Positions 8,526 through 27,057 of a DNA stretch of 64,000 nt are shown piece by piece (positions within the stretch are counted from its first letter, which is position 1; each line of letters begins with the position of its first letter). The notes below the pieces were generated by a model. The model worked only from the letters and a program-made list of their open reading frames with translations. It searched no databases and had not been told where the DNA came from. The position numbers and the translations under genes are program-made. The stretch is from a virus: the IMG/VR virus record IMGVR_UViG_3300015607_002611, positions 9,143 through 73,142 of that record; one strand, written 5' to 3'.

Positions 8526-8536
8526 AATAAATAGAA

Positions 8537-10301: not shown

Positions 10302-10364
10302 AAAATGAAACAAATATAAATACAACGTTATATAACATGAACGTTTAATTAAATTAATAATAAC

Positions 10365-10553: not shown

Positions 10554-10577
10554 TATTGACAAAAGCTCAATTTAAAA

Positions 10578-10601
10578 GGTGACTATACGTCACCTTTTTT
10601 T
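10578..10601 (+). terminator. Rho-independent terminator
   Basis: GGTGAC-tatac-GTCACC hairpin followed by a T7 run. Confidence 0.7.
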
Positions 10602-10690
10602 AGGTTTATATGTCAAATTTTCTTAACAAAAGTATTGGCATACTTTTGAAGCATAGTATACTATATTAACAAATAAAAATAAATAAAGCT

Positions 10691-11089: not shown

Positions 11090-11109
11090 AAATTATTTCT
11101 TCTTTTAAA

Positions 11110-11132
11110 GGCAGTAAATTACTGCCTTTTTT
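11110..11132 (+). terminator. Rho-independent terminator
   Basis: GGCAGT-aaatt-ACTGCC followed by a T6 run. Confidence 0.7.
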
Positions 11133-11136
11133 ATGT

Positions 11137-11149
11137 GATATATAAAAAT
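11137..11149 (+). promoter_or_regulatory. Candidate 'GATATATAAAAAT' promoter-like motif immediately upstream of ATG 11150
   Basis: The same motif class occurs upstream of the homing-endonuclease genes. It resembles T4 late TATAAATA. Confidence 0.3.
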
Positions 11150-11728
11150 ATGAATTCATTAGAAAAGTTTTGTGAAAATAAAAGAATAGCAATTGTAGGT
11201 AATTCATCTAAAATATTAAGCCATAATTATGGTGATATTATAGATGCACATGATATAGTTGTAAGAATTAATCATGCTCCTAAATATATCTCTAAATACC
11301 CAAAGAATGTAGGGACTAAAACTACTATAATGTCTTATGGTCTAAGTAGATTAGATATTGCTAGAGATATTTCCAAAATTTGTAATCCTCAATATAATTT
11401 ATTTTTAATAAGATGTAATGGTGAAATAAAAGATTATTCCCAATATTCCTTATTTAAAAATCCTTTTCATGGAAGCATTGAAGAATATAAAAAACTTAAA
11501 TCTAAATTTGATGTATTTAAACCTTCGACAGGTTCAGTTACTATAAATTATTTTATTAACAATATTAATTTTAGTAAACTTAATTTATTTGGATTTGATT
11601 TCTTTACTAGTTCTTCACCTAATAGAAAAAATGAATTCCACTCGTATATTTATAGAGACCATAGCGCAGTATTAGAACAAAAGTATGTTCAGAGTGTTTT
11701 AAATGAAAATGTAGTTATATTTTACTGA
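11150..11728 (+). CDS. Sialyltransferase-like glycosyltransferase (GT29 L- and S-motifs)
   Basis: L-motif 'IAIVGNSSKILSHNYGDIIDAHDIVVRINHAP' and S-motif 'KPSTGSVTINYFINNINFSKLNLFGFDFF'. The track start at 11135 is a GTG, so the ATG at 11150 is preferred. Confidence 0.65.
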   Translation: MNSLEKFCENKRIAIVGNSSKILSHNYGDIIDAHDIVVRINHAPKYISKYPKNVGTKTTIMSYGLSRLDIARDISKICNPQYNLFLIRCNGEIKDYSQYSLFKNPFHGSIEEYKKLKSKFDVFKPSTGSVTINYFINNINFSKLNLFGFDFFTSSSPNRKNEFHSYIYRDHSAVLEQKYVQSVLNENVVIFY

Positions 11729-11777
11729 AACAATTTGCCAATGATAGATATAAAAACAATAAAGTGTTTAAATTATA

Positions 11778-13307
11778 ATGTCACAAAAGAAACGAATAAT
11801 AAAATATTTAAAACCTGATATAGTCAAAAGTGTCGCCAACATTAATAAGAATATGTCTAGACCAGCCGTTCCTAAAAAGACAGTATCTATACCTACAAAT
11901 TATACAGAAATTCCGTTACCTAATTTAATCAATAATTTTACGAATAAGCCTAAAAATAATAGAGTTTTTATTATAGGTGGAGGTTCTTCATTAAGTGGAT
12001 TTGATTTTTCAATATTAAAAGACGAAGATATTATTGCAGTTAATAAATCAATTGAATACGTTAATTATGCAAAATATTTTGTTACAATGGATTATACATT
12101 TTTTACAAATCACCACAAATTAACAAATGCTGACTTTAGTATAATTAATAATAAGGCAGAACATACATATTTCATTATAAATACTGAACATAGTTATATT
12201 AAAAATATAAATGGTGTATATACTGATACTAGATTTAATTTAAAATATACAGCGCTTGAAAAATTTGAAGGTGTAATTAGAAGTCCTAAGACATACGACT
12301 CAAGTAGAGGATTTGGAAGTGATATACATACATTTACACACGGTAATAATAGTGGTTATTGTGCTTTACAATTAGCAATTGCTTTAGGTTATGAAGAAAT
12401 ATATTTATTAGGATATGACCTAAATATAAGTTCAAGTAAAACACATTTCCATAATGGCTATAAACAAGATGTTTCTAGATTTTCTAGGAACTTAATTGAA
12501 TATAGAACTATATTTTCTAAATCATTACAATTATATAAAGGCCCTAGTAAAATATACAGTTGCTCAAACAATAGTTATCTTAATACTTTTATAAAATATG
12601 TAGATATTAAAACTGTATTAAATGTACCAGTACAACGGCAAATAATTAGACCTGAAAATATAATTGTACCTGATAGTATTCCACCTATTAAAACAAGTGA
12701 AATGAATGGAGATTTAAGAGACCTTATTGTTATTGGTTATTATACAATTAATACTCCTTATGAAGCTGAAGCTCAGGGATTAATTAAATCTTGTAGTAAA
12801 TTAAATTTAAGACAAGATATTATAGGTGTACCAACGTTTGGTAATTGGCAATCAAATACTAGATTTAAAGCTAAATTTATGCTAGAGATGTTAGAAAAAT
12901 ATCCTGGTTCTAAATTAGTATATGTAGATGTTGATGCTGTAATCCATTCAAGATTAAATTTATTTAAAGATTATGATTATGATATTTCTGTTAGGTATCA
13001 AGATTTTAGATGGCGTAAAAATGAGTGTTTAAGCGGTACTATATTTATAAAATCAAATGAGAAAACCATTAAATTATGTAAACGTTGGATGGAAATAAAT
13101 GATTCTGAGGGTTCTAATGCTAAAACATTAGAACAATGGAATTTAGATAAGGCAATACAAGAGGGTATTAAAGACTATGGTTTAACATTTAAAAATTTAC
13201 CACCTGAATATACATTCATTTTTGATTCAATGAAGGCAATATATCCAAATGTTAAACCTGTAATTGAACATTTCCAAGCTAGTAGAAGATTTAGAAATAA
13301 AGTATAA
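11778..13307 (+). CDS. Two-domain glycosyltransferase: N-terminal CstII/GT42-like (DUF115-like) sialyltransferase-fold domain plus C-terminal DxD GT-A domain
   Basis: N-terminal 'NRVFIIGGGSSLSGFDFSILKDEDIIAVNKSIEY' resembles CstII 'VIIAGNGPSLKEIDYS...DVFRCNQFY'. C-terminal 'LVYVDVDAV' is a DxD motif. Confidence 0.5.
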   Translation: MSQKKRIIKYLKPDIVKSVANINKNMSRPAVPKKTVSIPTNYTEIPLPNLINNFTNKPKNNRVFIIGGGSSLSGFDFSILKDEDIIAVNKSIEYVNYAKYFVTMDYTFFTNHHKLTNADFSIINNKAEHTYFIINTEHSYIKNINGVYTDTRFNLKYTALEKFEGVIRSPKTYDSSRGFGSDIHTFTHGNNSGYCALQLAIALGYEEIYLLGYDLNISSSKTHFHNGYKQDVSRFSRNLIEYRTIFSKSLQLYKGPSKIYSCSNNSYLNTFIKYVDIKTVLNVPVQRQIIRPENIIVPDSIPPIKTSEMNGDLRDLIVIGYYTINTPYEAEAQGLIKSCSKLNLRQDIIGVPTFGNWQSNTRFKAKFMLEMLEKYPGSKLVYVDVDAVIHSRLNLFKDYDYDISVRYQDFRWRKNECLSGTIFIKSNEKTIKLCKRWMEINDSEGSNAKTLEQWNLDKAIQEGIKDYGLTFKNLPPEYTFIFDSMKAIYPNVKPVIEHFQASRRFRNKV

Positions 13308-13308
13308 T

Positions 13309-14064
13309 ATGGATAAGAAAGTTAGTATATTAATACCGGCATATAATCGCCAAGACTTTATTAAGACTGCTCTTAAAAGTTGTACTAGTCAAACATATAA
13401 TAATTTTGAGGTTATTGTATATGATGATGGTTCTACTGATGAAACTTTAAATGAAATTAAAGATTTTATAAAAAATTGTTCTATTAAAAATAAAAATAAG
13501 ATAAGAATAATTGAAGGTGTTACTAATAAAGGAATTGGTGTTGCACGGAATATTTTATTAAATTCCTTCGATAGTGAATATGCATGTTGGCTTGATAGTG
13601 ATGATATGATGACGTCGAATAGATTACAAGATTGTATTAATTACATGGATGTTAATCCTGAAACTGATATCATATACAGTAATATACAATGGTTTACTGG
13701 AAATAATCCATATAAATACGGTACAATTATATCACCTAATATAACAAGATATTCAAAGGATAAATTTGAATCTATTTCAAATAATTCAAGTTGTGCAAGC
13801 GGTTTTTTTAAATCAGATTTTAAAAAATATAAGTTTTTAGAAGGTTTAAATTTAGGCGGTGAAGATTCTCTTTGGTTATGGGATATAATTAAAGATGATA
13901 GGGTAATAAGACATATTGATAGAGTTTTATATTATTATAGAAGCCATGGTAATAGAATAGGTATAATTAAAAGAAAAGAAGAATTTAAAGAATTAAAAGA
14001 TAAAGAAGGTTTAATTGTATATAATTATCTAAATAATATAAAGAAAAATGAATCCGATAAATAA
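13309..14064 (+). CDS. Glycosyltransferase family 2
   Basis: 'VSILIPAYNRQDFIKTALKSCTSQTYNNFEVIVYDDGSTDET' and 'WLDSDDMM' (DxD). The ATG at 13309 right after the upstream stop is preferred over the track start at 13264. Confidence 0.8.
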   Translation: MDKKVSILIPAYNRQDFIKTALKSCTSQTYNNFEVIVYDDGSTDETLNEIKDFIKNCSIKNKNKIRIIEGVTNKGIGVARNILLNSFDSEYACWLDSDDMMTSNRLQDCINYMDVNPETDIIYSNIQWFTGNNPYKYGTIISPNITRYSKDKFESISNNSSCASGFFKSDFKKYKFLEGLNLGGEDSLWLWDIIKDDRVIRHIDRVLYYYRSHGNRIGIIKRKEEFKELKDKEGLIVYNYLNNIKKNESDK

Positions 14065-14692
14065 TTACTTTAATAAAATATACTGTGTTAATTTAGATAG
14101 ACGTCAAGAAAGATGGAAAGAAGCTTCAGATGAATTTAAAAAATTCAGTTTAGATGTAGAAAGATTTTCAGCTGTTGATGGTAGTAAATTAGATTTATCT
14201 AATATTAAAATGCAAGTTCTTAAATCTGATTCTTTACCGGGCGCTGTTGGTTGTAGTATGAGCCATAGAAATATAATCATAGACGCTAAAGAAAAAGGCT
14301 ATGAGAAAATTTTAATATTAGAAGATGATGTAGTATTTACTGACAATTTAATCGAAAGATTTGAAAAAGAAATTAATTCTTTACCTGAAGATTGGGATTT
14401 ATTTTATTTAAGTGCTAACAATCTTAAACCAGAAGCTTTAACTAAAATAAATGAAAATATATGGAGGACAAGATTTTCATATACTACACATTGTTATGCA
14501 GTTCATTCTAGAGTATATGATGTAATAATTAAAGGATTGGAAAATCTTGATGTTCCGGTTGACCAATTTTATAAAAACGTATTACAACAAGAATATAATT
14601 GCTATGTTATTAGACCTCATTTATCATGGCAACGCGAGGGTTATAGTGATATAATGAAAGGTAATAGATTTTACAAAAATATAAAAGAGTAA
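14048..14692 (+). CDS. Glycosyltransferase family 25 (LOS/LPS beta-1,4-galactosyltransferase-like)
   Basis: 'KIYCVNLDRRQERW...FSAVDGSKL...GAVGCSMSHRNII' matches the GT25 N-terminal signature. Confidence 0.65.
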   Translation: MNPINNYFNKIYCVNLDRRQERWKEASDEFKKFSLDVERFSAVDGSKLDLSNIKMQVLKSDSLPGAVGCSMSHRNIIIDAKEKGYEKILILEDDVVFTDNLIERFEKEINSLPEDWDLFYLSANNLKPEALTKINENIWRTRFSYTTHCYAVHSRVYDVIIKGLENLDVPVDQFYKNVLQQEYNCYVIRPHLSWQREGYSDIMKGNRFYKNIKE

Positions 14693-15276
14693 TGCCATAT
14701 TCAGATAAACATAAATTAATATTTATACATATTCCTAAAAATGCAGGTACTGCTATTACTAATGCACTTGAAATGAATGATATTGGACATCATTCATGGA
14801 AATATTATAAAAATAAATATCCTGAAAAATGGAATACATATACAAAAATTGCAGTTATTAGAAACCCATGGGATCGTGTAGTATCTAATTATGCATATGC
14901 TAGAATGGAAGAAAGTCACTGGCATTCAGTTTCAGGAAAAACTAGATATTCAAAACACCCAGACTTAGAATTATTAAAAGATAAATCGTTTGAAGAGTGT
15001 ATATCTATTTTAAAAAATAATCCAAGTTCTTTAAAACATCAGGGCTGGTCTTTACAAAAAGATTATATTACAGATGACAATCATATAGTAATTGATATTG
15101 TAATATTACAAGAAGATATTAATACTGTAATAAATAGATTAACAAACGTTAATGTGAGTAAAATAAATACAAGTAAAAGAGATGATTATAAAACTTACTA
15201 TAATCAAGATTTAATTGAAACAGTAGGTGAAATATACAAGGAAGATATAAAATTATTTAATTTTAAATATGAGTGA
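14692..15276 (+). CDS. PAPS-dependent sulfotransferase (carbohydrate sulfotransferase-like)
   Basis: 5'-PSB motif 'IHIPKNAGTAI' (HIPKTGGT-like) and 3'-PB-like 'RNPWDRVVSNYAY'. Confidence 0.6.
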   Translation: MPYSDKHKLIFIHIPKNAGTAITNALEMNDIGHHSWKYYKNKYPEKWNTYTKIAVIRNPWDRVVSNYAYARMEESHWHSVSGKTRYSKHPDLELLKDKSFEECISILKNNPSSLKHQGWSLQKDYITDDNHIVIDIVILQEDINTVINRLTNVNVSKINTSKRDDYKTYYNQDLIETVGEIYKEDIKLFNFKYE

Positions 15277-15817
15277 TATAAATAAAATGCTAAATACAAA
15301 TAATTGGTTTAGCTTTAAGGGATTTTATGAAAATGTAGCTAATATAAGTGAATATAAAACTTATGTTGAGTTAGGTGTATGGAAAGGACATTCAGTTAGT
15401 TATTTAGCAAAATGCCTTAAAAAAAGAAATGATACTAAAGTATATGCTGTCGATATATTTGAGAAGTGGGATAAAAATGAAAATGTAAAAGATGAAGTTA
15501 AACATATTAATGAAATCTATAATACTAATTTAAAAAATATGGGTGTTAGGGATTCAATTACTGACATTAAATCTATTTCATGGGATGCTGCATCTAAATT
15601 TGAAGATAATAGTATTGATTTTGTTTTTATTGATGCTGACCATACATATGAATCAGTGGTAAAGGACATAAATTCATGGTTGCCTAAAATTAAAAAGGGT
15701 GGAATGATATCAGGTCATGATTATTTCACTTCAGATGGTGTTAAACGAGCTGTAGTTGAATTATTAGGTAATGTTGAATCAATTAAAAAAGAAAACGTTT
15801 GGTATAAAAAAGTATAA
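15269..15817 (+). CDS. Class I SAM-dependent O-methyltransferase (TylF/MycF / CmcI-like sugar O-MTase)
   Basis: 'YVELGVWKGHSVSYL' and 'FVFIDADHTYESVVKDI...KKGGMISGHDY'. Confidence 0.6.
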   Translation: MSDINKMLNTNNWFSFKGFYENVANISEYKTYVELGVWKGHSVSYLAKCLKKRNDTKVYAVDIFEKWDKNENVKDEVKHINEIYNTNLKNMGVRDSITDIKSISWDAASKFEDNSIDFVFIDADHTYESVVKDINSWLPKIKKGGMISGHDYFTSDGVKRAVVELLGNVESIKKENVWYKKV

Positions 15818-16671
15818 TGTCTTATATTACTCCTAGAATAATAAAATTTGGTAAACCTGAAAATCATAGAAGTTCAATTGGACATGCAATGTATAATTAT
15901 ATAACAGCACTTTTGCTAGCTAAAAAATATAATTTAACATTCTTACATTCTCCATTTATAGCTGATTGTGAAAGATTTGAGAATGTATTAGGTTTAAATA
16001 AATTCTTTCCTAATTTTAAGACAATTAGAATGCCTGAATATAAGCTTCTACCTTATTGTAATTTTGGTCATCCTAATTTAGATGAAAATAAATATAATAA
16101 TAGTTTAAGGAGACTTTCAATTGAAATAAATAAGAAGACTACTAAAACTATATTCTTTACAAATAATCCAGCTGAACAGTTTCCGGGATTATTAATAAGA
16201 GAATCTGAATATCTTTCAAATATATTATCTGAAGCTTATTGGTCAGTTAATGGAAAATCAAAATTATATGATTATTCTAAAACAAACGTAGCTATCCATA
16301 TAAGAAGGGGTGATATCACTGAAAAAGAAAACACTGATAGATGGAAGGATAATAATCATTATATTAATATTATTAATAGTATAAAATCTAAAATACCTGA
16401 TGCTAGATTCTATATATTTTCTGAAGGTGAAATTGGAGATTTTAAAGAATTTAGTAAAGATGTTAATTTAATTTTAAATGGTAGTGATATTGAAGCATTT
16501 AATAATTTAGCAAGTTCTGATATATTAGTAACAGGACAGAGTACATTCTCTACAATTATTTCATATATTAATACAGGAACTATTGTTTATACACCATGTT
16601 TGAGTTTTACATTATTTGATGGTTTCAGTAAAAGGTTTATAAGATACGATAAAATAGATGAACAATTATAA
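15817..16671 (+). CDS. Fucosyltransferase-fold glycosyltransferase (GT11/GT23-like)
   Basis: 'VAIHIRRGDI' fits GT11 motif I (HVRRGDY). N-terminal 'SIGHAMYNYITALLLAKKYN' fits the GxLGNQMFxYA pattern. Confidence 0.45.
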   Translation: MSYITPRIIKFGKPENHRSSIGHAMYNYITALLLAKKYNLTFLHSPFIADCERFENVLGLNKFFPNFKTIRMPEYKLLPYCNFGHPNLDENKYNNSLRRLSIEINKKTTKTIFFTNNPAEQFPGLLIRESEYLSNILSEAYWSVNGKSKLYDYSKTNVAIHIRRGDITEKENTDRWKDNNHYINIINSIKSKIPDARFYIFSEGEIGDFKEFSKDVNLILNGSDIEAFNNLASSDILVTGQSTFSTIISYINTGTIVYTPCLSFTLFDGFSKRFIRYDKIDEQL

Positions 16672-17497
16672 AATATATTTTACTACTAATTGGAGTATAA
16701 GACATGATGTTTTCATGGATTACCTAAAAAGACAAACCCCTGACTTTTCAGGTTCTTGGGATAATATCATAATGGTTAATAAACAAAGAGAAGCTGACTA
16801 TATTATAGTACAAGATGGTTCAGATGAAAAGATCGAAGATATGTCTAAGGTTATATTTTTTGGACGTGAACCTAAACATATTAAATATTATTGTTGGGAC
16901 GATAAATTATGTAATAAAGTATATCATCATGAAAATAATAATTGCTGGCTTCCGCAAACTTGGTGGGTTGGTTTAAATTATAATGAGTTAATTAACTTAA
17001 AATATTTAAAGAATAAAAAATTTAGTATAATTGACTCTGGTAAAATATCTAAAGATGGTCATAAGAATAGATTAAACTTCATCAAATTATTTATAAATCA
17101 ATATCCAAATGATGTAGACTTATATGGTAAAATAAATGGAAATATATTACCCGAAAGAGATAAAAGCCTTGCATTATTAAATTATAAATATACTTTATCA
17201 ATTGAAAATGGAGTAACTGATAATTACTTCTCTGAAAAATTTGTAGACCCGTTATTATGTTTAACATTACCAATATATCATGGATGTAGAAGAATAGATA
17301 AATACTTTCCTAAAGGTTCTTATTATAAAATTGATATAAATAAGTCAGGTACTATTCAAGAAATATATAATTTGATTAACAGTAATTATGCTGAAGAGAA
17401 TATAGAAAATATTAAAGAAGCTAGAGATTTAATATTAAAAAAGTACAATATTTGGCCAACAGTAAAATTAGCAATAGAAAATAATATTAAAATATAA
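16658..17497 (+). CDS. GT10-like alpha-1,3-fucosyltransferase-fold glycosyltransferase
   Basis: 'YKYTLSIENGVTDNYFSEKFVDPLLCLTLPIYHG' matches the FucT motif (FxLxFENS...YxTEKxxxxL...PVxxG). Confidence 0.5.
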   Translation: MNNYKIYFTTNWSIRHDVFMDYLKRQTPDFSGSWDNIIMVNKQREADYIIVQDGSDEKIEDMSKVIFFGREPKHIKYYCWDDKLCNKVYHHENNNCWLPQTWWVGLNYNELINLKYLKNKKFSIIDSGKISKDGHKNRLNFIKLFINQYPNDVDLYGKINGNILPERDKSLALLNYKYTLSIENGVTDNYFSEKFVDPLLCLTLPIYHGCRRIDKYFPKGSYYKIDINKSGTIQEIYNLINSNYAEENIENIKEARDLILKKYNIWPTVKLAIENNIKI

Positions 17498-17498
17498 A

Positions 17499-17909
17499 AT
17501 GGAAAAAATTTATTCTAAAGTACAACCTGATAAATTATTACATATAATAGTAAGAAAGTCTGATATGGTTCCAGGAAGAACTGATATTGTAGACCCTGAG
17601 CATTTCATACAATGTTCCATGTTAAATATGGAAAAAGGTAAAACATTTAAACCACATAAACATATTTGGAAAGAGAGAAAAAGAGATGTAATAGCACAAG
17701 AAAGTTGGGTTGTTATACAAGGAAGTGTTAAATGTATATTTTATGATATTGATGATACATTAATAGCCGAGCCTGTATTATATCCCGGTGATTCAAGTTA
17801 TACACTTGAAGGTGGTCATAATTATGAAATACAAGAAGATAATACTCTTGTGTATGAATATAAGACAGGGCCTTATGAAGGTCAAATATTTGATAAAACA
17901 TTTTTATAA
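17499..17909 (+). CDS. Cupin-fold protein, possible NDP-ketosugar isomerase/epimerase
   Basis: Cupin motif 'PHKHIWKERKRDVIAQESWVVIQG'. Context is between the GTs/MTases and Gmd. Confidence 0.35.
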   Translation: MEKIYSKVQPDKLLHIIVRKSDMVPGRTDIVDPEHFIQCSMLNMEKGKTFKPHKHIWKERKRDVIAQESWVVIQGSVKCIFYDIDDTLIAEPVLYPGDSSYTLEGGHNYEIQEDNTLVYEYKTGPYEGQIFDKTFL

Positions 17910-17910
17910 T

Positions 17911-18459
17911 ATGGAAAAAAATAAAATTAACTTAGGTTGCGGTTGGAGAAATTTTGGCAAAGAATGGCTTCATATTGATAATGGTGATTACGATCATTTA
18001 GATATTAAATGTGATGTAAAGAAATTAGATTTACCTGATAATTACGCAGATTTAATTTACGTATCACATGTTATCGCATATTTTGATAGAAATGAAATAT
18101 GTGATGTTTTAAAAGAATGGAATAGGGTTTTAAAACCAGGTGGTACTTTAAGAATAGCTACGCCAGATTTTGAAGCAATGAGTAAACTTTATGTACAAGG
18201 GAGGATAGAACTTAAACAGATGTTGGGTCCAATGTATGGTAAAATGCCAATGGATGATATTACAATTTATCATAAAACTACTTATGATTTTCATTCATTA
18301 GCTACAGTATTATTAGATAATGGATTCAGGTATGTAAAAACATATAACTGGAAACAAACTGAACATGCACAATTTGATGACCATTCACAGGCTTATATTC
18401 CTCATATGGATAAAGAGAATGGTACACTTATTAGCTTGAATGTCGAATGTATTAAATAA
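17911..18459 (+). CDS. Class I SAM-dependent methyltransferase
   Basis: 'INLGCGWRNFGKEWLHIDN' (motif I) and 'WNRVLKPGGTLRIATP'. The ATG at 17911 is preferred to the overlapping track start at 17788. Confidence 0.6.
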   Translation: MEKNKINLGCGWRNFGKEWLHIDNGDYDHLDIKCDVKKLDLPDNYADLIYVSHVIAYFDRNEICDVLKEWNRVLKPGGTLRIATPDFEAMSKLYVQGRIELKQMLGPMYGKMPMDDITIYHKTTYDFHSLATVLLDNGFRYVKTYNWKQTEHAQFDDHSQAYIPHMDKENGTLISLNVECIK

Positions 18460-18460
18460 A

Positions 18461-19718: not shown

Positions 19719-20700
19719 GAAAGCATTTATCACAGGAATTAATGGACAGGATGGTAGTTATTTAGCTGAATATCTATTATCATTGGGTTACGATGTACAT
19801 GGAATGATGAGACGTAATTCAGTACCTGAAAATCAAACAATGAGAATTGAATCAATTGAAAAAAATATTCAAACCCATTATGGTGATTTATTAGACCAAA
19901 CTTCAATCGAAAGATTATTAACAGAAATTAAGCCAGACGAAATTTATAATCTTGCAGCTCAGTCTCATGTAAGAATTAGTTTTGATGTACCTCAATTTAC
20001 AGTACAAACTAATTCAGTAGGTGTAATTAATATGCTAGAAGCATATAAAAGAATTGTACCAGATGCTAGATTTTATCAAGCAAGTTCATCTGAAATGTTT
20101 GGATTATCAGTAGAAGAAGATAATTTCCAAAGAGAAAGTACTATAATGAATCCTGTATCTCCTTATGGATGTAGTAAAGTATTTGGGTATAACGTAGTAA
20201 GACATTATAGAAGAGCTTATAATATACATGCTAGTAATGGTATTTTATTTAATCATGAAAGTCCTCGTAGAGGTTCTAACTTTGTAACTAATAAAGTAGT
20301 TAAGGGTGCGTGTATGATTAAGTTGGGTTTAGATAATAAGTTAGAATTAGGTAACATGGATTCTTATAGGGATTGGGGTCACTCTAAAGATTATGTTAAA
20401 GGGATGCATATGATTTTAAATCATGACGTTGCTGATGATTTTATTCTTTCGACAATGGAAACACATTCTGTTAGGGAAATGTGTGAAGTTGTATTTAGTT
20501 ATTTGGGTTTAAATTATCAAGATTATGTAGTTCAAAATCCTAAATATTTAAGACCTGAAGAATTACCTTATCTTAAAGGTGATTCTACTAAAGCAAGGAC
20601 AATTTTAGGTTGGAAACCAGAATATACATTTGAAGCTTTAATGCATGAAATGTGTGACCATTGGTTAGATGTATTACAAGGTAAAAAATCTTATAGATAA
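19711..20700 (+). CDS. gmd: GDP-mannose 4,6-dehydratase
   Basis: Near-full-length similarity to Gmd: 'KKAFITGINGQDGSYLAEYLL', 'YNLAAQSHV', 'FYQASSSEMFG', 'NGILFNHESPRRG', 'LGNMDSYRDWGHSKDYV'. Confidence 0.92.
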   Translation: MSKKAFITGINGQDGSYLAEYLLSLGYDVHGMMRRNSVPENQTMRIESIEKNIQTHYGDLLDQTSIERLLTEIKPDEIYNLAAQSHVRISFDVPQFTVQTNSVGVINMLEAYKRIVPDARFYQASSSEMFGLSVEEDNFQRESTIMNPVSPYGCSKVFGYNVVRHYRRAYNIHASNGILFNHESPRRGSNFVTNKVVKGACMIKLGLDNKLELGNMDSYRDWGHSKDYVKGMHMILNHDVADDFILSTMETHSVREMCEVVFSYLGLNYQDYVVQNPKYLRPEELPYLKGDSTKARTILGWKPEYTFEALMHEMCDHWLDVLQGKKSYR

Positions 20701-20963
20701 TGAAATTTGAAATATGGTCAGTAGGTATAGATGAAGGCGTATATACGCCTATGTTTAAGGAATTAGAGTCAGATGACTTTTCATATATTTATGCAACATT
20801 TTTAAAATTATCAAAGAATGGTATGTATATGATTACTACTAAGACTTTATTGCCAGCAAACGAGCTTAAAAATCAAAAGTGGATTTATGAATCACCTGAC
20901 GGTGGTAAAACAATTTATAAAAGAAAACGTTTAACAAATGATAGAGAACAACATGAGGGATAG
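20700..20963 (+). CDS. Hypothetical protein
   Basis: ATGA-coupled to gmd. Confidence 0.3.
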   Translation: MKFEIWSVGIDEGVYTPMFKELESDDFSYIYATFLKLSKNGMYMITTKTLLPANELKNQKWIYESPDGGKTIYKRKRLTNDREQHEG

Positions 20964-21549
20964 AATAAAAAATCTAATACAACAAGAATTAGATGCTATC
21001 AAAAATATTCCTATAAATGATACATTTGAAGATGCAGTTGAATTAATATACAATCATGTACATTTAGGAAGAGGTAAAATAGTAGCAGCAGGCATTGGAA
21101 AAGCTGGCCATATTGCACATAATATTGCCATGACATTATCTTCGACAGGGACGAGAGCAGTATTCATTCATCCTACCGAGGCACAACATGGTGATTTAGG
21201 TATATTAGGAAGAAATGATATTTTATTACTTGCTTCTAATTCAGGTAAAACAAGAGAAGTTTTAGAATTTATACAATTAGCAAAAAACATTTTTCCAGAC
21301 ATCAAAGTTATTTCAATTACTGGAAATAAAGAAAGTGAATTAGCTAATAAATCAACTGTAAATTTATATACAGGCGGTGCTAAAGAAATAGATAAATTTC
21401 AATTAGTCCCAACTACATCAACAACACTTATGACAATTATTGGAGATATTTTAGTTGTCGAATTAATGGATAAAATTAATTTTACTAAAGAACAATACCA
21501 ATTATTACATCATTCTGGATATATTTCTGAACAGCTAAAAAACAAATAA
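20938..21549 (+). CDS. kdsD: Arabinose-5-phosphate isomerase, SIS-domain only (KdsD/KpsF-like)
   Basis: 'GKIVAAGIGKAGHIAHNIAMTLSSTGTRAVFIHPTEAQHGDLGIL...LLLASNSGKTREV' parallels KdsD 'GMGKSGHIGRKMAATFASTGT...HPGEAAHGDLGM'. Confidence 0.8.
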   Translation: MIENNMRDRIKNLIQQELDAIKNIPINDTFEDAVELIYNHVHLGRGKIVAAGIGKAGHIAHNIAMTLSSTGTRAVFIHPTEAQHGDLGILGRNDILLLASNSGKTREVLEFIQLAKNIFPDIKVISITGNKESELANKSTVNLYTGGAKEIDKFQLVPTTSTTLMTIIGDILVVELMDKINFTKEQYQLLHHSGYISEQLKNK

Positions 21550-21550
21550 T

Positions 21551-22330
21551 ATGGAAAAACATTTTAAATTAATAGCAGGACCCTGTTTAATTGAAGACGA
21601 AGAAGTAGCTTTAAGAATTGCTGCAGAATGTAAATATATTGCTGATAGACTAGGAATAGAATATTACTTTAAAGGTTCTTATAAAAAAGCAAATCGAACT
21701 AAGCTTTCTAGTGTATCTTCTGGAATGACAGAAGAACGAGCTTTACAAGTTTTACATAAAATTAAAACTGTATTAGGTATACCTGTCGTTACAGATGTTC
21801 ATGAAACACATGATTGTGAAAAAGCTGCAAAATACGTAGACGTATTACAGATACCAGCATTTCTTTGTAGACAGACTGAGCTGCTTATAGCAGCAGGTAA
21901 AACTGGTAAGATAGTTAACATTAAGAAAGGTCAATTTATGGCACCAGAGTCAATGATTCATGCTCAAGAGAAAGTATATTCAACAGGTAATAAAAACGTT
22001 TGGCTTACAGAACGTGGAACTACATTTGGATATGAATATCTTGTAGTTGATATGACTTCAATGCCTAAAATGAGAAAGTTTAATGATAATGTTATAATGG
22101 ATTGTACACATTCAGTCCAAAGACCAAATCAGAACGGCCAGACAGGTGGAGACCCTGAAATGATAGAAACTATTGCTTTAAGTTCTATTGCAGCTGGCGC
22201 AACAGGATTATTCTTAGAAGTACATCCTGAACCTTGGAAATCTGGAAGTGATTCAACTAACATATTACAGATTGATAAATTAGAAGGTATTTTAGAGAAA
22301 TGTATTAAGGTTAAACAAGCCTTAAAATAA
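21551..22330 (+). CDS. kdsA: 3-deoxy-8-phosphooctulonate (Kdo-8-P) synthase
   Basis: 'GPCLIE', 'YFKGSYKKANRT', 'VVTDVHE', 'VDVLQIPAFLCRQTEL', 'VNIKKGQF', 'ERGTTFGY', 'DCTHSVQ' and 'LFLEVHPEP' are all KdsA signatures. Confidence 0.9.
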   Translation: MEKHFKLIAGPCLIEDEEVALRIAAECKYIADRLGIEYYFKGSYKKANRTKLSSVSSGMTEERALQVLHKIKTVLGIPVVTDVHETHDCEKAAKYVDVLQIPAFLCRQTELLIAAGKTGKIVNIKKGQFMAPESMIHAQEKVYSTGNKNVWLTERGTTFGYEYLVVDMTSMPKMRKFNDNVIMDCTHSVQRPNQNGQTGGDPEMIETIALSSIAAGATGLFLEVHPEPWKSGSDSTNILQIDKLEGILEKCIKVKQALK

Positions 22331-22331
22331 T

Positions 22332-22868
22332 ATGGCCAAAGTTTTAGAAAACATTAAAGGTACTCATGAATATTCAATACTTGTTGAATACATGAAACAA
22401 TTACAATATGATAAGTTAGTACACTCATCATATGCACCTAAGAGATTAGAAAAATGGTTCGGTTATTCATCTAATCTCCAGTCTATTAAAGATGGTAGAC
22501 ATGAATTAAAATTCATTGAAACAATACCTTACGTTTTCAATAGAATTAAAAACGATTATTATCCAGAATCTGATTCAATTTTAATTTGTAAAGGTGAAAA
22601 ACCAGATTCTGATACTTCAATTTCAAACCATAGAGACCACGGATGCTTTTTAGCAAAAGCTGTTATGTTAAATATTGGAATTTCTACATATACTGAAACT
22701 GATTATAATGGCTTAGTTAAATTATACGAACTGAATGATGGTGATATAATTGAAATTGATACAAAGATAATTCATGCATCAAGTCAAATAAGTGACCTGA
22801 GATTAAATGCAACTTTAAGAAAAGTTAGACCTGAATTTTTACCACGAAAAACAAACAATTTATTTTAA
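22332..22868 (+). CDS. Hypothetical protein, possible Fe(II)/2-oxoglutarate dioxygenase fold
   Basis: 'HRDHG' (HxD) with downstream 'IIEIDTKIIHAS' (second His). There is no HAD DxDG motif, so it is not KdsC. Weak. Confidence 0.25.
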   Translation: MAKVLENIKGTHEYSILVEYMKQLQYDKLVHSSYAPKRLEKWFGYSSNLQSIKDGRHELKFIETIPYVFNRIKNDYYPESDSILICKGEKPDSDTSISNHRDHGCFLAKAVMLNIGISTYTETDYNGLVKLYELNDGDIIEIDTKIIHASSQISDLRLNATLRKVRPEFLPRKTNNLF

Positions 22869-23617
22869 TGAGAACATTAGGAGTTATACCAGCAAGATAC
22901 GCTTCGACTAGATTGCCAGCTAAACCATTAGCTAAAATTAATGGTAAAACAATGATTGAATGGGTTTATGATGCTGCAATACAATCTGATTTAGATGAAG
23001 TTGTAGTTGCAACAGAAGATATTAAAATTTTTGATTACTGTAGTACTGTAGATATTAGAGTAGTTATGACTAGCCCAAATCACGTTTCAGGGACTGAAAG
23101 AATAATTGAAGTAACTAAAATGGAAGGTTACGATGATTTCGATATTATCGTTAATATACAAGGTGATGAACCGATGATTACTCCAAAAGATATTAATGAA
23201 CTTATTAATTCGATGAAAAATTGGCAATCAGTTTATCCAAATACAATTGGAACATTAGTTACTCTAATACAACCTCACGAATATACACAAAGAAGTTGCG
23301 TTAAAGCTTATCAGAAAGAAAATACTTCAGAAATTATAATGTTTACTCGAAGTAGCTTTTACAACTTCGAGTTAAATGAAGTTAATCGTTTCAAAAAACA
23401 TATTGGCATATATGCTTTTCCATCTAAGATTCTTGAAAACATTTCTGAACTTAAGGATAGAACTACAAATGAGATAGCTGAAAGTTTAGAACAACTTAGA
23501 TGGCTTGATAACGGAATGAGCATAGCAGGAGTTTTCACGTCAAATCAAACTATTTCAATTGATACACCAGAGGATTTAGAAAGAGTCCGTTTAAAATTAA
23601 AACATGAGCATATTTAA
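22868..23617 (+). CDS. kdsB: 3-deoxy-manno-octulosonate cytidylyltransferase (CMP-Kdo synthetase)
   Basis: 'LGVIPARYASTRLPAKPL', 'VVATED', 'SGTERI', 'IVNIQGDEPMI', 'IGIYAF' and 'IDTPEDLERVR' parallel E. coli KdsB throughout. Confidence 0.9.
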   Translation: MRTLGVIPARYASTRLPAKPLAKINGKTMIEWVYDAAIQSDLDEVVVATEDIKIFDYCSTVDIRVVMTSPNHVSGTERIIEVTKMEGYDDFDIIVNIQGDEPMITPKDINELINSMKNWQSVYPNTIGTLVTLIQPHEYTQRSCVKAYQKENTSEIIMFTRSSFYNFELNEVNRFKKHIGIYAFPSKILENISELKDRTTNEIAESLEQLRWLDNGMSIAGVFTSNQTISIDTPEDLERVRLKLKHEHI

Positions 23618-24110
23618 AAAAGTAAGAGAGTTAATTCCAACAATCGATAAATTACGACATGTGATTAAATCAATTAGTTATCGATTTTATTCAACGTGTA
23701 TTACAATTACAATAGCTAGCTTTGTAACAGGTAGTACCAAAACAGCATTTGCTATAGGCAGCGCAGATTTTTTTATAAAGATTTTCACTTATTATATTCA
23801 TGAAAGAATTTGGTTTTATATTCCATTTGGTTTACAAAAGCCAAGAAAAATTCATGCTGAAATTAGTTGGGAACCAAGTATAGAAGTTGGTGCACATGAA
23901 CAAATTGAATTTTTAGAATTTGAAGATAAAGATGTTCGTAAAAGAGTTAAAGTTACTAAATCTATGGAAGGTGTACACCCTATAGTATATAGAGCTTTAT
24001 TATCAACGAAAGATAAAAATACAAATAAGAGATATTCAGATGTTGTTCATGGTAGCAAAGAAGATATCGAAAAATTATTAAATGTTAAAATAAAAGAAGA
24101 TGGAAAATAA
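23604..24110 (+). CDS. Hypothetical membrane protein
   Basis: Two or three hydrophobic helices in the N-terminal half. Confidence 0.3.
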   Translation: MSIFKKVRELIPTIDKLRHVIKSISYRFYSTCITITIASFVTGSTKTAFAIGSADFFIKIFTYYIHERIWFYIPFGLQKPRKIHAEISWEPSIEVGAHEQIEFLEFEDKDVRKRVKVTKSMEGVHPIVYRALLSTKDKNTNKRYSDVVHGSKEDIEKLLNVKIKEDGK

Positions 24111-24315
24111 CATTCCTATAAAATTTAAAGATACTATAATTGGCTATGCTGATTCAGAAGGTAAAATTATCGAAATAATTAATAAAAAATTATGGGATAA
24201 ATTATTTACCAATAATCAAAATGTTTATATTTCAAGTAGGGGTTTAGGTGAAGTTAATAATGAAGGTACAATAATAAATGATAAGAGAATATCATTTGAT
24301 ATTTATGAAAAATAA
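24100..24315 (+). CDS. Small hypothetical protein
   Basis: ORF only. Confidence 0.25.
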   Translation: MENNIPIKFKDTIIGYADSEGKIIEIINKKLWDKLFTNNQNVYISSRGLGEVNNEGTIINDKRISFDIYEK

Positions 24316-24350
24316 TATTCTGGTTTATAGGTATTTCCGGCAATGAATCA

Positions 24351-24359
24351 ATATATAAT
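24351..24359 (+). promoter_or_regulatory. 'ATATATAAT' motif 18 nt upstream of homing-endonuclease-like gene
   Basis: Same motif class as upstream of the other HE genes. Confidence 0.25.
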
Positions 24360-24376
24360 TAAAATAATTTGATTAT

Positions 24377-25231
24377 ATGTACATAAGAAAGTGCCCAACT
24401 TGTCCACGTGAAACTAAATTTAAAAGTAAGAAAGCTTATAATAGAGCAATTGAATCAAACAGAAGCTGTAAACAATGTAGTATAAGAAATAATCTTTCTG
24501 GGTATAGAAATGATGTTTCAAATGGTTTAAAGCCTAATGGATTTTTAAATAAAACACATACAGAAGAATTTAAAAACAGGCTAAGAATAGAAAGAATAGG
24601 TAAAAAAGTTCATAATAGTAAATCTAAATCTAAAATTAGTAAAGCTTTATCCGGTGAAAACAATCCAATGTTTGGTAAATCTTTCTATGATATTTGGGTT
24701 GAAAAATATGGAAAAGAAGTTGCAGATAAAAAGTTAAAAAAATTTAAGTTTAAAATTAGTAAAGCAACTGAAGGTAAAAACAACCCAATGTTCGGTAAAC
24801 CTTCGCCCCAAGGAAGTGGTAACGGTTGGAAAGGTTGGTACAAAGGAACGTTCTTTAGAAGTTTACACGAGCTATCTTTCTTGATTAATTATATAGAAAG
24901 ATTTAAAATGCCATTTGAATCAGGTGAACAAGCTAAATGGGCAATTGAATATAGAAAACCTACAGGTGAAATTGGTACATATTTTTCAGACTATGTTATC
25001 AATGGGAAATATATGGTCGAAATAAAACCTGAAAAACTTAAAAGTAGCCCAACTAATAAAGCTAAACGCAAAGCAGCTGAAAAGTTTTGTAAAGCTAAAG
25101 GTTTAAAATATAAAATGATATCGCCGATATTATTAACTGAAACAAATATCCTATTTTTACATAAAAAGAATATAATTAAATTTACAGACATATATGAAAA
25201 ACGATTCAGAAAGCAATATACATTTTCATAA
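24377..25231 (+). CDS. Homing-endonuclease-like protein: N-terminal zinc finger, NUMOD3-type repeats, C-terminal PD-(D/E)XK-like motif
   Basis: 'CPTCPRE...CKQC', repeated 'ENNPMFGKS' and 'KNNPMFGKP' (NUMOD3-like), and 'FSDYVINGKYMVEIKPEK' (D...ExK). Confidence 0.45.
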   Translation: MYIRKCPTCPRETKFKSKKAYNRAIESNRSCKQCSIRNNLSGYRNDVSNGLKPNGFLNKTHTEEFKNRLRIERIGKKVHNSKSKSKISKALSGENNPMFGKSFYDIWVEKYGKEVADKKLKKFKFKISKATEGKNNPMFGKPSPQGSGNGWKGWYKGTFFRSLHELSFLINYIERFKMPFESGEQAKWAIEYRKPTGEIGTYFSDYVINGKYMVEIKPEKLKSSPTNKAKRKAAEKFCKAKGLKYKMISPILLTETNILFLHKKNIIKFTDIYEKRFRKQYTFS

Positions 25232-25853
25232 TTTAAGTGTTACCCGCGAGATGCGAGAAAAATTAAATGGTCATAAACCGTGTATAATTTGGTTCACTGG
25301 GTACAGCGGAAGTGGAAAATCCACAATAGCTAATATTTTAGATACTTATCTACATAAAGGTGGCTATCACACTTATATCTTAGACGGCGATAATATTCGC
25401 TCAGGTTTAAACAAGAATTTAGGTTTCAGTGACGATGACCGTAAAGAAAACATTCGCCGTATTAGTGAAGTAGCTAAATTATTTGCTGATTCTGGTACAA
25501 TTGTATTAACAGCATTCATTTCACCTTTTATTGAAGATAGACAAATTGCACGTGATATTCTTTCAAAAGATTTCAATTTTATTGAAGTTTATGTTGAAGC
25601 AGATTTAGAAACATGTGAGGCGCGTGACCCTAAAGGTCTTTACAAAAAAGCAAGAGCTGGTCAAATCAAAAACTTTACTGGAATTGATAGTCCTTATGAA
25701 GCTCCTATAAATCCAGAAATAACATTAAAAACTTCCCAGTATAGTCCAGACTTAAGCGCATATACAGTTCTTCATTATTTATACGATAATAATATTTTAC
25801 CTTTAGGACTAAAGCAAGATGCTGTTAATAATTCTAAAACATTAAGTCACTAA
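25194..25853 (+). CDS. cysC: Adenylyl-sulfate (APS) kinase
   Basis: 'IIWFTGYSGSGKSTIA', 'LDGDNIRSGLNKNLGFSDDDRKENIRR', 'VLTAFISP' and 'CEARDPKGLYKKARAGQIKNFTGIDSPYEAP' are near-identical in pattern to E. coli CysC. Confidence 0.93.
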   Translation: MKNDSESNIHFHNLSVTREMREKLNGHKPCIIWFTGYSGSGKSTIANILDTYLHKGGYHTYILDGDNIRSGLNKNLGFSDDDRKENIRRISEVAKLFADSGTIVLTAFISPFIEDRQIARDILSKDFNFIEVYVEADLETCEARDPKGLYKKARAGQIKNFTGIDSPYEAPINPEITLKTSQYSPDLSAYTVLHYLYDNNILPLGLKQDAVNNSKTLSH

Positions 25854-25855
25854 TT

Positions 25856-26077
25856 ATGGCAAAAACACCAAGCACATCAGAACATTTAAACGAAGTTTTA
25901 AGTGATACTCAACAATTAAATGATATTAATTCTAGTATTTTACATGCTGAAAAAACATTAGAGTATTTGAATAATATGTATAAAGAAAAGCCTCAGAATC
26001 CTGTAGGTTCAGCTATTAATGTAGTTGAATTATTAATAATGAATTTAAAAAAATTAAAACCAGTAGCAAAAGATTAA
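25856..26077 (+). CDS. Small hypothetical protein
   Basis: ORF only. Confidence 0.25.
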   Translation: MAKTPSTSEHLNEVLSDTQQLNDINSSILHAEKTLEYLNNMYKEKPQNPVGSAINVVELLIMNLKKLKPVAKD

Positions 26078-26078
26078 T

Positions 26079-26561
26079 ATGAATAATTGGAGTAAAACAA
26101 ATCACGGTGGCCAAAAATTAGCCAAAGTAGAAGATAAGAAGCAATATGCTATCTTTGTAGGAAGATTTCAACCATATCATTATGGTCATATCTCTTTAAT
26201 TGAACAAAAGATTAATGATGGAATCCCTGCTTTAATTATGGTAAGAGATTTACCTGCAGATGAAAAAAATCCATTCACAACTGAACAAACTGTACAGATG
26301 ATTGAAAAATATCATAGTGCAAAAGGTCATGATGTAAAGGTAATGATTATACCTGATATCGAAAGTGTAAATTATGGTAGAGGTGTTGGATATGAAGTAA
26401 ATGAATTTACACCACCTGAGAATATTAGATTTATCTCTGCAACAAAAATCAGAGAGTCTATTAAAACTGGAAATACTGAATGGCATCAAATGGTCCATGA
26501 AAGTATACAAGACGATGTAATAAATTACTTAAAAGAAAACGATCTATTACTTTCTAAATAA
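26079..26561 (+). CDS. nadM: HxGH nucleotidyltransferase, archaeal/NadM-type NMN adenylyltransferase-like
   Basis: 'AIFVGRFQPYHYGHISLIE' matches the archaeal NMNAT signature GRFQPFHKGH. 160 aa. Confidence 0.5.
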   Translation: MNNWSKTNHGGQKLAKVEDKKQYAIFVGRFQPYHYGHISLIEQKINDGIPALIMVRDLPADEKNPFTTEQTVQMIEKYHSAKGHDVKVMIIPDIESVNYGRGVGYEVNEFTPPENIRFISATKIRESIKTGNTEWHQMVHESIQDDVINYLKENDLLLSK

Positions 26562-26565
26562 TTTA

Positions 26566-26588
26566 AAGCCGGTTTATCCGGCTTTTTT
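26566..26588 (+). terminator. Rho-independent terminator
   Basis: AAGCCGG-tttat-CCGGCTT followed by a T-run. Confidence 0.7.
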
Positions 26589-26647
26589 ATTCATAAACAA
26601 AACTAAATTAGTGCATATATAATCTATAACACGTTTATTAAAATATT

Positions 26648-27016: not shown

Positions 27017-27057
27017 ACAATATCTTATTTTCACATATAAGTTCTAAACTAAATACT

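Follow-up and report, generated by a model that had tools for sequence, protein, structure and literature searches.

Catalogues of glycan-synthesis gene clusters from large marine phages go back twenty years, and the acceptors of these clusters have never been demonstrated. What such a cluster makes, and onto which molecule the product is built, is the question raised by a ∼15-kb island at positions 11137–26588 of the DNA analysed here. This DNA, hereafter the window, is a stretch of 64,000 nucleotides from the virus record IMGVR_UViG_3300015607_002611 of IMG/VR (positions 9,143 to 73,142 of that record). An earlier note on the window, prepared from its letters alone, had described about 24 + strand genes for a sulfated and methylated oligosaccharide, destined for the virion, for the lipopolysaccharide (LPS) or capsule of the host, or for DNA. 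To identify the genes, the open reading frames (ORFs) of the island were compared with Pfam, NCBIfam, PDB sequences and PHROG; these profile searches, which the note had set as a check, upheld nearly all of its calls. As shown by homology, the predicted enzymes supply CMP-activated 3-deoxy-D-manno-oct-2-ulosonic acid (CMP-Kdo), GDP-4-keto-6-deoxymannose and 3′-phosphoadenosine 5′-phosphosulfate (PAPS), and comprise seven glycosyltransferase domains, one sulfotransferase and two methyltransferases. The proteins of the virion are tentatively put forward as the acceptor.

Layout and Limits of the Island

The island was found as 25 contiguous + strand ORFs at 11150–26561, with many start and stop codons overlapping in the ORF listing and translations. 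Eight terminator-like hairpins were detected in 10200–28000, against 3.5 expected by chance, and two of them bound the island.

11107–11129, + strand: terminator-like hairpin, 10-bp stem followed by a T run, directly 3′ of hsp20; upstream edge
26565–26585, + strand: terminator-like hairpin, 8-bp stem with 5 G-C pairs followed by a T run, directly after the last ORF; downstream edge

A third hairpin (10574–10598) is located upstream of hsp20, and the hairpins within the island (16951–16967 and 19412–19429) are weak, have 3 G-C pairs each and lie inside ORFs. The region 11137–26588 looks like a single transcription unit, an operon between two terminators; the flanking hairpins show the limits given in the earlier note to be nearly exact. 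The GC content was 25–30% over the island as compared with 26–30% in the flanks. The succession of ∼20 glycan-related genes is far beyond chance.

Glycosyltransferases

The six glycosyltransferase types expected from the earlier reading, with seven domains in total, were supported by profiles, the GT11 assignment being borderline by score and accompanied by its motif.

11150–11728, + strand: mini GT29-like CMP-sugar transferase, 192 aa from the ATG at 11150 (Pfam GT29 48.7 bits, cutoff 23); candidate Kdo transferase
11778–13307, + strand: bifunctional glycosyltransferase, 509 aa, with a Maf/CstII/WaaZ-like N-domain and a retaining GT-A C-domain (Nucleotid_trans)
13309–14064, + strand: GT2 glycosyltransferase (Pfam Glycos_transf_2 117.6 bits)
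14048–14692, + strand: GT25 glycosyltransferase (Pfam 58.4 bits), kept in the related contigs L007, L009, L076 and L078
15817–16671, + strand: GT11-like enzyme, alpha-1,2-fucosyltransferase type (Pfam 23.2 bits against a cutoff of 23.9, borderline; HIRRGD motif present)
16658–17497, + strand: GT10-like enzyme, alpha-1,3-fucosyltransferase type (Pfam C-terminal domain 34.6 bits; motif IENGVTDNYFSEKF)

The best PDB sequence matches of the mini-GT29 were the animal sialyltransferases ST3Gal-I (E 1e-6) and ST6Gal-I. The sialylmotifs L, S and VS of the GT29 family were all present, with G17, N18, D35, R39 and N41 (motif L), P125, G128, G148, F149 and D150 (motif S), and H171 and E176 (motif VS) invariant in 15 homologs. 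The N-terminal domain of the 509-aa fusion is MptE-like and WaaZ-like (TIGR04437, E 3.5e-7), a domain of the CMP-ulosonic-acid transferase type. At least 280 full-length homologs of the fusion were retrieved at 45–85% identity, none of them named by source; among the 120 homologs listed, the largest contig was 283 kb, that is, none was chromosome-sized. In one scan of IMG/VR, the protein matched a single distant locus (L006, GC 50%), which is uninformative. The mini-GT29 and the 509-aa fusion form a conserved core pair that appears to be phage-specific on the basis of these homologs, and the closest structures of the core enzymes were mostly protein glycosyltransferases. GT25 is the family of the beta-1,4-galactosyltransferases of lipooligosaccharide (LOS) and of the collagen galactosyltransferases.

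Sugar-Precursor Pathways

Two sets of precursor genes were identified in the central and right-hand parts of the island.

17499–17909, + strand: WbuC-family cupin, deoxy-sugar pathway accessory (NCBIfam TIGR04366 38.3 bits against a cutoff of 42)
19059–19718, + strand: short DegT-family aminotransferase dependent on pyridoxal phosphate (PLP), 219 aa (67.8 bits; PLP lysine kept, SFQYQK)
19711–20700, + strand: GDP-mannose 4,6-dehydratase GMD (Pfam GDP_Man_Dehyd 378 bits, cutoff 27)
20938–21549, + strand: arabinose-5-phosphate isomerase (API), SIS-only (KpsF/GutQ E 4e-42; KdsD E 4e-40)
21551–22330, + strand: Kdo-8-phosphate synthase KdsA (NCBIfam 341 bits, cutoff 242, and 334 bits, cutoff 314)
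22868–23617, + strand: CMP-Kdo synthetase KdsB (NCBIfam 236.7 bits, cutoff 193, and 163.6 bits, cutoff 155.2)

The CMP-Kdo pathway had been described as complete. Its three named enzymes stand: KdsA and KdsB both score above their cutoffs, and the isomerase is of the KdsD/KpsF type in a SIS-only form; as it has no CBS domains, it does not reach the cutoffs set for full-length proteins. The word complete does not stand, as the KdsC phosphatase is absent; no HAD or KdsC match to Pfam was found in any island ORF, and the step must therefore fall to the host or to an unannotated small ORF.

The dehydratase, the aminotransferase and the cupin (the last with a score under its cutoff) were likewise supported by Pfam, NCBIfam and PDB comparisons. 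GMD carries the GxxGxxG and YxxxK motifs and reaches 381.6 bits with TIGR01472, just under the cutoff of 415. The best PDB matches of the short DegT protein were perosamine synthetases (E 5e-6), and the alignment includes the PLP lysine. At 219 aa, as compared with ∼370 in typical members, it is missing the C-terminal domain; proteins of the same type and of 210–222 aa recur in four other phage islands (L075–L078), which therefore identifies a conserved short family and not a pseudogene. There is no GDP-fucose synthase in the island.

Sulfation and Methylation Genes

The presence of a PAPS-type sulfotransferase together with the APS kinase CysC was confirmed by Pfam scores and motifs.

14692–15276, + strand: PAPS-type sulfotransferase, Sulfotransfer_2 (Pfam 53.3 bits; PHROG 3347)
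15269–15817, + strand: O-methyltransferase dependent on S-adenosylmethionine (SAM), Methyltransf_24, TylF/CmcI-like (86.4 bits)
17911–18459, + strand: SAM methyltransferase, Methyltransf_11, 182 aa (Pfam)
18440–19078, + strand: 212-aa ORF with only a DNGAGLG Rossmann-like motif
23604–24110, + strand: DUF2061 predicted membrane protein
25194–25853, + strand: CysC, kinase of adenosine 5′-phosphosulfate (APS), PAPS-making (Pfam APS_kinase 238 bits, full length; P-loop GYSGSGKST)

The sulfotransferase translation contains both PAPS-binding motifs, namely IPKNAGT at the 5′-phosphosulfate-binding site and RNPWDRVVS at the 3′-phosphate-binding site. No Pfam match to ATP sulfurylase or CysD/CysN was found in the island ORFs; APS therefore has to come from the host. 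With KdsC, ATP sulfurylase and GDP-fucose synthase all absent, the description of the pathways as complete was an overstatement. The gene for the DUF2061 protein is found directly before cysC, overlapping it, in three lineages (window 23604–24110 and 25194–25853; L002 13362–14511; L075 20432–21461), an adjacency that suggests a role for DUF2061 in sulfation.

Three SAM methyltransferases had been counted in the earlier note. Two of them, including the TylF type, were recovered; the third (18440–19078) matched no Pfam or NCBIfam profile, PDB sequence or PHROG and is at most a putative methyltransferase.

Phage Origin and Probable Host

Since KdsA, KdsB, GMD and CysC are genes of bacterial type, the island might have been bacterial DNA misassembled into a phage contig, an outcome that had been named in advance as fatal to the whole proposal. 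This explanation is effectively refuted already, and we regard its probability as negligible. An independent metagenome contig from ENA (L001) is 100% identical to window 9711–30700 and spans both island junctions, and 62 indexed blocks of the sequence collection contain the GMD protein in identical form. The GC content of the island is like that of its flanks, the same island is found between the same phage genes in relatives at 35–85% amino-acid identity, and the best bacterial KdsA is merely 71% identical.

The source is probably an uncultured large T4-like phage with a Bacteroidota host, as judged from gene content and homology. The window encodes T4-type RNA ligases (RnlA-type and Rnl2-type), ThyA-like proteins, a sigma-70 region 2 protein and a PDDEXK exonuclease of cyanomyophage type, whose nearest relative is in the huge phage record LR756500.1 (42% identity), followed by T4-like cyanophages (∼32%). 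Also encoded are Hsp20, GIY-YIG and NUMOD3 endonucleases, a third RNA ligase and a Thg1-like protein. No structural genes were found in the window, and walking upstream beyond it gave more metabolic genes and no structural ones. The capsid protein Gp23 was seen only on the 283-kb contig of a relative, where the island abuts Gp23 and a prohead protease (Peptidase_S77). The nearest genomic relatives of KdsA were almost all Bacteroidota metagenome-assembled genomes (48–71% identity), which points therefore to a Bacteroidota gene donor and probable host and also argues against misassembly.

Comparison of the Island Across Relatives

Related islands were identified on contigs of 118–283 kb and on the 462-kb LR756500.1. 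The left end is kept across lineages (mini-GT29, 509-aa fusion and usually GT25), and so is the right end (API, with or without KdsA, a KdsB-type cytidylyltransferase, and often then DUF2061 and CysC). The middle is swapped for further glycosyltransferases, for transferases of methyl, acetyl, sulfate and pyruvyl groups, and for ATP-grasp enzymes. Some related islands are without KdsA or without the sulfation genes, and between strains the homing endonucleases and an AlkB-like gene vary in presence. Conserved ends with a variable middle form a pattern that fits diversifying selection on an exposed glycan. In the alignment of the window with strain L002, nucleotide identity was 92–93% in the flanks, 77.6% in the glycosyltransferase half (11128–17882) and 98.4% in the precursor half (17894–22332); such a step inside the island indicates recent recombination between co-circulating strains.

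LR756500.1, an uncultured huge phage, has syntenic counterparts of the mini-GT29, the 509-aa fusion, the sulfotransferase (50%), API (53%), KdsA (56%), KdsB (46%) and CysC (53%), and upstream neighbour genes are common to both as well. It differs in that amino-acid identity is just 35–67%, its GC content is 23% against 29%, the GMD/DegT/GT10/GT11 cassette is missing and the record is unannotated; a text search of the literature gave no mention of LR756500. Among 50,697 phage records, the island had no nucleotide match by megablast. In the same records, the 509-aa fusion was found only in LR756500.1, with a partial 24% match in one Cronobacter phage, and the sulfotransferase was confined to two huge uncultured phages, apart from a distant counterpart in phage DLP6.

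The same comparison bears on whether the genes have a joint product at all. They could instead be separate auxiliary metabolic genes, with Kdo made for LPS, CysC serving assimilatory sulfate reduction and GMD serving host fucose, which became chance neighbours in a plastic region. The irregular presence of KdsA and of the sulfation genes in related islands is in keeping with this idea, as are the island members that look unrelated to glycans (the AlkB-like dioxygenase, a homing endonuclease and an NMNAT-like protein) and the frequent listing of cysC as a viral sulfur-assimilation gene in virome surveys. We nevertheless consider it improbable. The sulfotransferase and CysC occur together in the window, in LR756500.1 and in L075, and no CysH or CysDN is present to make CysC useful for assimilation. 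A CMP-sugar pathway always accompanies the sialyltransferase-fold enzymes, GMD overlaps the Per-like aminotransferase gene, and the whole forms a single unit between terminators in which start and stop codons overlap.

Proposed Mechanism and Acceptor

We propose that the island would act as a self-contained cytoplasmic glycan-decorating module. CMP-Kdo would be made by the SIS-only API, KdsA and KdsB, with a host phosphatase dephosphorylating Kdo-8-phosphate, and CysC would convert host-made APS to PAPS. GMD would yield GDP-4-keto-6-deoxymannose, which the short DegT enzyme may turn into a 4-amino-4,6-dideoxyhexose, for instance GDP-perosamine. The GT10-like and GT11-like enzymes would presumably use a GDP-6-deoxyhexose, the GDP-fucose synthase coming from the host if fucose is used. 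The mini-GT29 and the Maf/CstII-like N-domain are assigned CMP-Kdo as their putative donor because it is the sole CMP-sugar that the island makes. We expect the product to be a short, branched and acidic oligosaccharide that carries methyl groups and sulfate. The chemistry anticipated in the earlier note (sulfation through PAPS, O-methylation, CMP-Kdo and a GDP-linked 6-deoxyhexose or amino sugar) is in this respect judged reasonable.

Export and polymerization genes were looked for in the 25 ORFs with Pfam, and no match to an initiating phosphoglycosyl transferase, Wzx, Wzy, WaaL or an ABC transporter was obtained; the island does not have the make-up of a Wzx/Wzy-dependent or ABC-transporter-dependent O-antigen or capsule locus. 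No enzyme contains a hydrophobic 19-mer of ≥1.6 on the Kyte-Doolittle scale, the exception being a spurious GTG-start N-terminal extension of the Methyltransf_11 ORF (1.62), and the DUF2061 protein is the sole predicted membrane protein of the island. The lack of a lipid-carrier enzyme, flippase, polymerase, ligase, exporter or membrane enzyme therefore argues for stepwise assembly on a pre-existing cytoplasmic acceptor.

We suggest that this acceptor would be phage structural proteins, either Ser/Thr-rich collagen-like fibres or the capsid, giving a strain-variable glycan coat on the virion. Virion proteins are slightly favoured over the LOS/LPS core of the host, with a confidence that falls a little short of even. 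They are placed ahead because the core enzymes are conserved and seemingly phage-specific, because their structural neighbours are mostly protein glycosyltransferases, and because collagen-like Ser/Thr-rich proteins recur upstream and the island of one relative adjoins capsid genes. Proteins of the collagen-like kind lie 2.5–6 kb upstream of the islands in the window, L075 and L078. Those expected at 4.4–5.8 kb were located at window 4413–5788 as two small Ser/Thr/Asn-rich proteins and a 155-aa protein that contains nine G-X-Y triplets of collagen type. In L075 (4029–5801) and L078 (5416–7533), collagen-repeat proteins of 590 and 705 aa, rich in GSTG and GATGPQG repeats, lie 2.5–4 kb upstream of the islands. 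Collagen glycosylation in the metazoan style (hydroxylysine-galactose-glucose, through GT25, an LH3-like GT-A enzyme and a dioxygenase) was considered and rejected, as the window collagen triplets are without Lys.

Several observations weigh against a virion acceptor. The collagen-like segment of the window has no Lys or Thr in its triplets, and acceptors are not defined by fold similarity. The absence of the 509-aa family from bacterial chromosomes is inferred only from the sizes of the contigs that carry its homologs. The island neighbours are metabolic genes of early or middle type (Hsp20, ArgG/H, nucleotide metabolism) and not structural genes. The late-promoter motif of T4 type, TATAAATA, is not enriched; matches in sigma-70 promoter scans were not above chance, and promoter scans at chance level are therefore uninformative on expression timing. 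Finally, similar clusters of cyanophages and pelagiphages have been interpreted in print as means of host-surface modification (PMC12801897, PMC7029224).

These points lead to the main competitor of the virion, the envelope of the host. Here, the phage enzymes would extend or cap lipid A-core or undecaprenyl pyrophosphate-linked intermediates, host MsbA/Lpt or Wzx/WaaL would export them, and superinfection, or the adsorption of progeny to infected cells and debris, would be blocked. We hold this to be a real possibility, at roughly one chance in three for the remodelling and for its consequence alike. The repertoire is typical of LOS, outer-core and O-antigen loci (GT25, GT2, GT10/GT11, WaaZ-like, KdsD/A/B, GMD with a Per-like aminotransferase, and WbuC), KdsA comes from the Bacteroidota, and LOS-type assembly needs no phage-encoded membrane machinery. 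The hypervariable middle resembles an O-antigen locus, the neighbour genes are of early or middle type, and remodelling of this kind is the standard reading of the cyanomyophage and pelagimyophage clusters (PMC12801897, PMC7029224). Conversely, the core enzymes look phage-specific and are not closely similar to host LPS genes, their nearest structures are mostly protein glycosyltransferases, and the Pfam search detected no GT30 or GT107 Kdo-lipid transferase in the island. A lytic phage has, moreover, little time for the replacement of outer-membrane LPS, and LPS alteration has been shown experimentally for none of the published phage clusters of this kind.

The remaining target proposed in the earlier note, DNA, is the least likely of the three. 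The glycosyltransferases would in that case decorate hydroxymethylated bases of the phage, for which the window offers two ThyA-like genes (possible hydroxymethylases) and an APH-type kinase at 282–3037, and diverse phage-made DNA glycans are known (Pyle 2024, as cited in PMC12619734). These ThyA-like genes are ∼8 kb off, with unrelated genes between. To our knowledge, the known DNA glycosyltransferase families are different ones and use UDP-sugars, and Kdo, sulfate, O-methyl groups and seven transferase domains are without precedent on DNA; none emerged from the limited searches of the literature either. Hypermodification is accordingly rated as highly unlikely.

A wider form of the virion proposal can also be stated, which we regard as rather doubtful: a widespread, uncultured aquatic clade of T4-like jumbo phages may coat its own virions with strain-variable Kdo/sulfate/O-methyl glycans, built on a conserved phage-specific core of mini-GT29, Maf-like/A64R-like fusion and GT25, with Ser/Thr-rich collagen-like fibres or the capsid as the likely carriers.

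Remaining ORFs and Surroundings of the Island

The other ORFs of the island are as follows.

20700–20963, + strand: 87-aa ORF, no function assigned
22332–22868, + strand: AlkB-fold Fe(II)/2-oxoglutarate dioxygenase between kdsA and kdsB, with an invariant HxD...H...R
24100–24315, + strand: 71-aa ORF, no function assigned; absent from L002, as is the adjoining endonuclease
24377–25231, + strand: homing endonuclease, NUMOD3 and TnsA-like, a mobile insertion splitting DUF2061 from cysC and not a glycan gene
25856–26077, + strand: 73-aa ORF, no function assigned
26079–26561, + strand: NMNAT-like nucleotidyltransferase with an HxGH motif, last gene ahead of the terminator; island role putative

The possible dioxygenase of the earlier note thus has an AlkB fold. 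It belongs to a small family of ∼170-aa proteins, of which 92 were recovered when 1.84 billion representatives were searched with a profile. Conservation of the dioxygenase reaches 76% in L007, and the closely related strains L002 and L003 lack it; it is an accessory gene whose tie to the glycan is putative. Homing endonucleases (NUMOD3/TnsA-like, GIY-YIG/NUMOD3) are found at window 24377–25231, 33329–34075 and 36914–37633, at sites that differ among near-identical strains, and L002 has one at 7512–8198, between the cupin and a methyltransferase.

The NadM-like call at the end of the island was borne out by NCBIfam as an NMNAT-like family, and the gene may simply serve NAD salvage or, conceivably, nucleotide-sugar or APS chemistry. 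In L006, an unrelated IMG/VR contig of 50% GC, a 42%-identical homolog (12303–13049) adjoins a P-loop kinase and a Maf/CstII-like domain. Because the gene follows cysC and adjoins this kinase in L006, a minimal ATP sulfurylase was considered; this was set aside as speculation, given that NCBIfam points to NMN adenylyltransferases and LR756500.1 does not have the gene.

Outside the island, an RNA-repair cluster occupies window 43546–52390, with an RNA_ligase-domain protein (43546–44577), an RnlA-like ligase (45457–46623), Rnl2 (47192–48223), a Thg1-like 3′-5′ tRNA nucleotidyltransferase (49117–49896) and a nucleotidyltransferase (51218–52390). The cluster suggests a defence against host anticodon nucleases; no tRNA genes were found in the window. 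At 282–3037, the two ThyA-like genes flank the APH-family kinase (1336–2181), an arrangement kept in L007 and L079 that may serve the hydroxymethylation or hypermodification of bases. Argininosuccinate synthase and an adjoining Lyase_1-family (argininosuccinate-lyase-like) gene follow shortly after the island at 27950–30489, and L079 has an arginine-deiminase/DDAH-like gene (8093–9034) ∼1 kb upstream of its homolog of the first window gene (282–1334); together these look like a phage arginine/citrulline metabolic set. A 563-aa SPFH/Band-7 domain protein is encoded at 31164–32855.

Comparison with Known Systems

The view that such machinery belongs mainly to chloroviruses and giant viruses and not to phages is wrong, because large cyanophages, pelagimyophages and moraphages bear comparable genes. 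Clusters of 20 or more such genes occur in cyanomyophages and pelagimyophages, and glycosylated virions are known from mycobacteriophages (Freeman 2023, as cited in PMC12619734). The T4-like cyanophages P-SSM2, S-SCSM1 and S-SCSM2R bear cell-wall/LPS gene sets; that of S-SCSM2R comprises 22 genes, among them 13 glycosyltransferases, KdsA, KdsB and an RmlC-type cupin, and its kds genes are the first in a cyanophage according to its authors (PMC12801897). In pelagimyophages, 162 LPS-related proteins were reported, and a hypervariable host-recognition cluster holds many of their LPS genes (PMC7029224).

Like the probable source of the island, the phages that carry these clusters are large T4-like myophages of aquatic habitats. 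In them, as here, numerous genes for glycosyltransferases and nucleotide-sugar enzymes are grouped together in plastic, hypervariable parts of the genome close to hsp20 and phoH. They differ in their hosts, cyanobacteria and SAR11 as compared with the predicted Bacteroidota host here, and the KdsA of S-SCSM2R is just 42% identical to that of the island. A text search of PMC12801897 and PMC7029224 for sulfotransferase, which did not extend to CysC, API, the mini-GT29 or the 509-aa fusion, found no mention. The moraphages, aquatic jumbo phages with 25 published genomes, four core glycosyltransferase orthogroups and predicted Bacteroidota hosts, resemble the source of the island by shared traits only, namely glycosyltransferases, Hsp20 and DnaJ, homing endonucleases and the predicted hosts (PMC12619734). 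The giant virus CroV carries a 38-kb Kdo biosynthesis region of bacterial origin (PMC3187590). It shares with the island a virus-encoded Kdo pathway of bacterial origin and is unlike it in infecting eukaryotes and in having acquired the region independently.

In chlorovirus PBCV-1 (A64R), Mimivirus (fibril enzymes) and the mycobacteriophages, virions are glycosylated by virus-encoded cytoplasmic glycosyltransferases, a role only proposed for those of the island; at 9–17% identity, there is no sequence-level relationship between those enzymes and the island. We know of no report of Kdo or sulfate on any phage virion. If the virion-coat reading is true, a sulfated glycan and a glycoprotein bearing Kdo would for the first time be known from a bacteriophage, and the viral cysC genes of this clade, taken for sulfur-assimilation genes, would feed glycan sulfation. 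Whichever the acceptor, cysC on a viral contig should not be read automatically as sulfur assimilation.

Bacterial LOS outer-core loci of the Campylobacter, Haemophilus and Neisseria type bring together ulosonic-acid transferases of the CstII type, galactosyltransferases of family GT25, GT2 enzymes and fucosyltransferases; their glycans are assembled stepwise in the cytoplasm without Wzx or Wzy. The island differs from these loci in having Kdo and not N-acetylneuraminic acid as its CMP-sugar, a PAPS module and phage-specific fusion enzymes, and in the lack of a heptosyltransferase or WaaA context.

The island is a sharp test case for the acceptor question, with its phage-specific core (at least 280 fusion homologs), dedicated CMP-Kdo supply, recurring PAPS/sulfotransferase pair and fast-diverging, cassette-like middle. 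Should the acceptor be the virion, sulfated acidic coats would be a new variable in the interactions of aquatic phages with hosts, grazers and particles; should it be host LOS, the island would be a rich toolkit for phage-driven serotype conversion in Bacteroidota. The 192-aa GT29 and the SIS-only API are, in addition, attractive small enzymes for Kdo glycoengineering. The sulfotransferase-CysC pair, the core of mini-GT29 and Maf-like/GT-A fusion, and the joined API-KdsA-KdsB set were not found described in the literature examined and, in the phage collection, occur only in uncultured huge phages. Set beside the known systems, what is new here is the module for sulfation, the conserved and seemingly phage-specific enzymes of the core, and a middle that varies from strain to strain.

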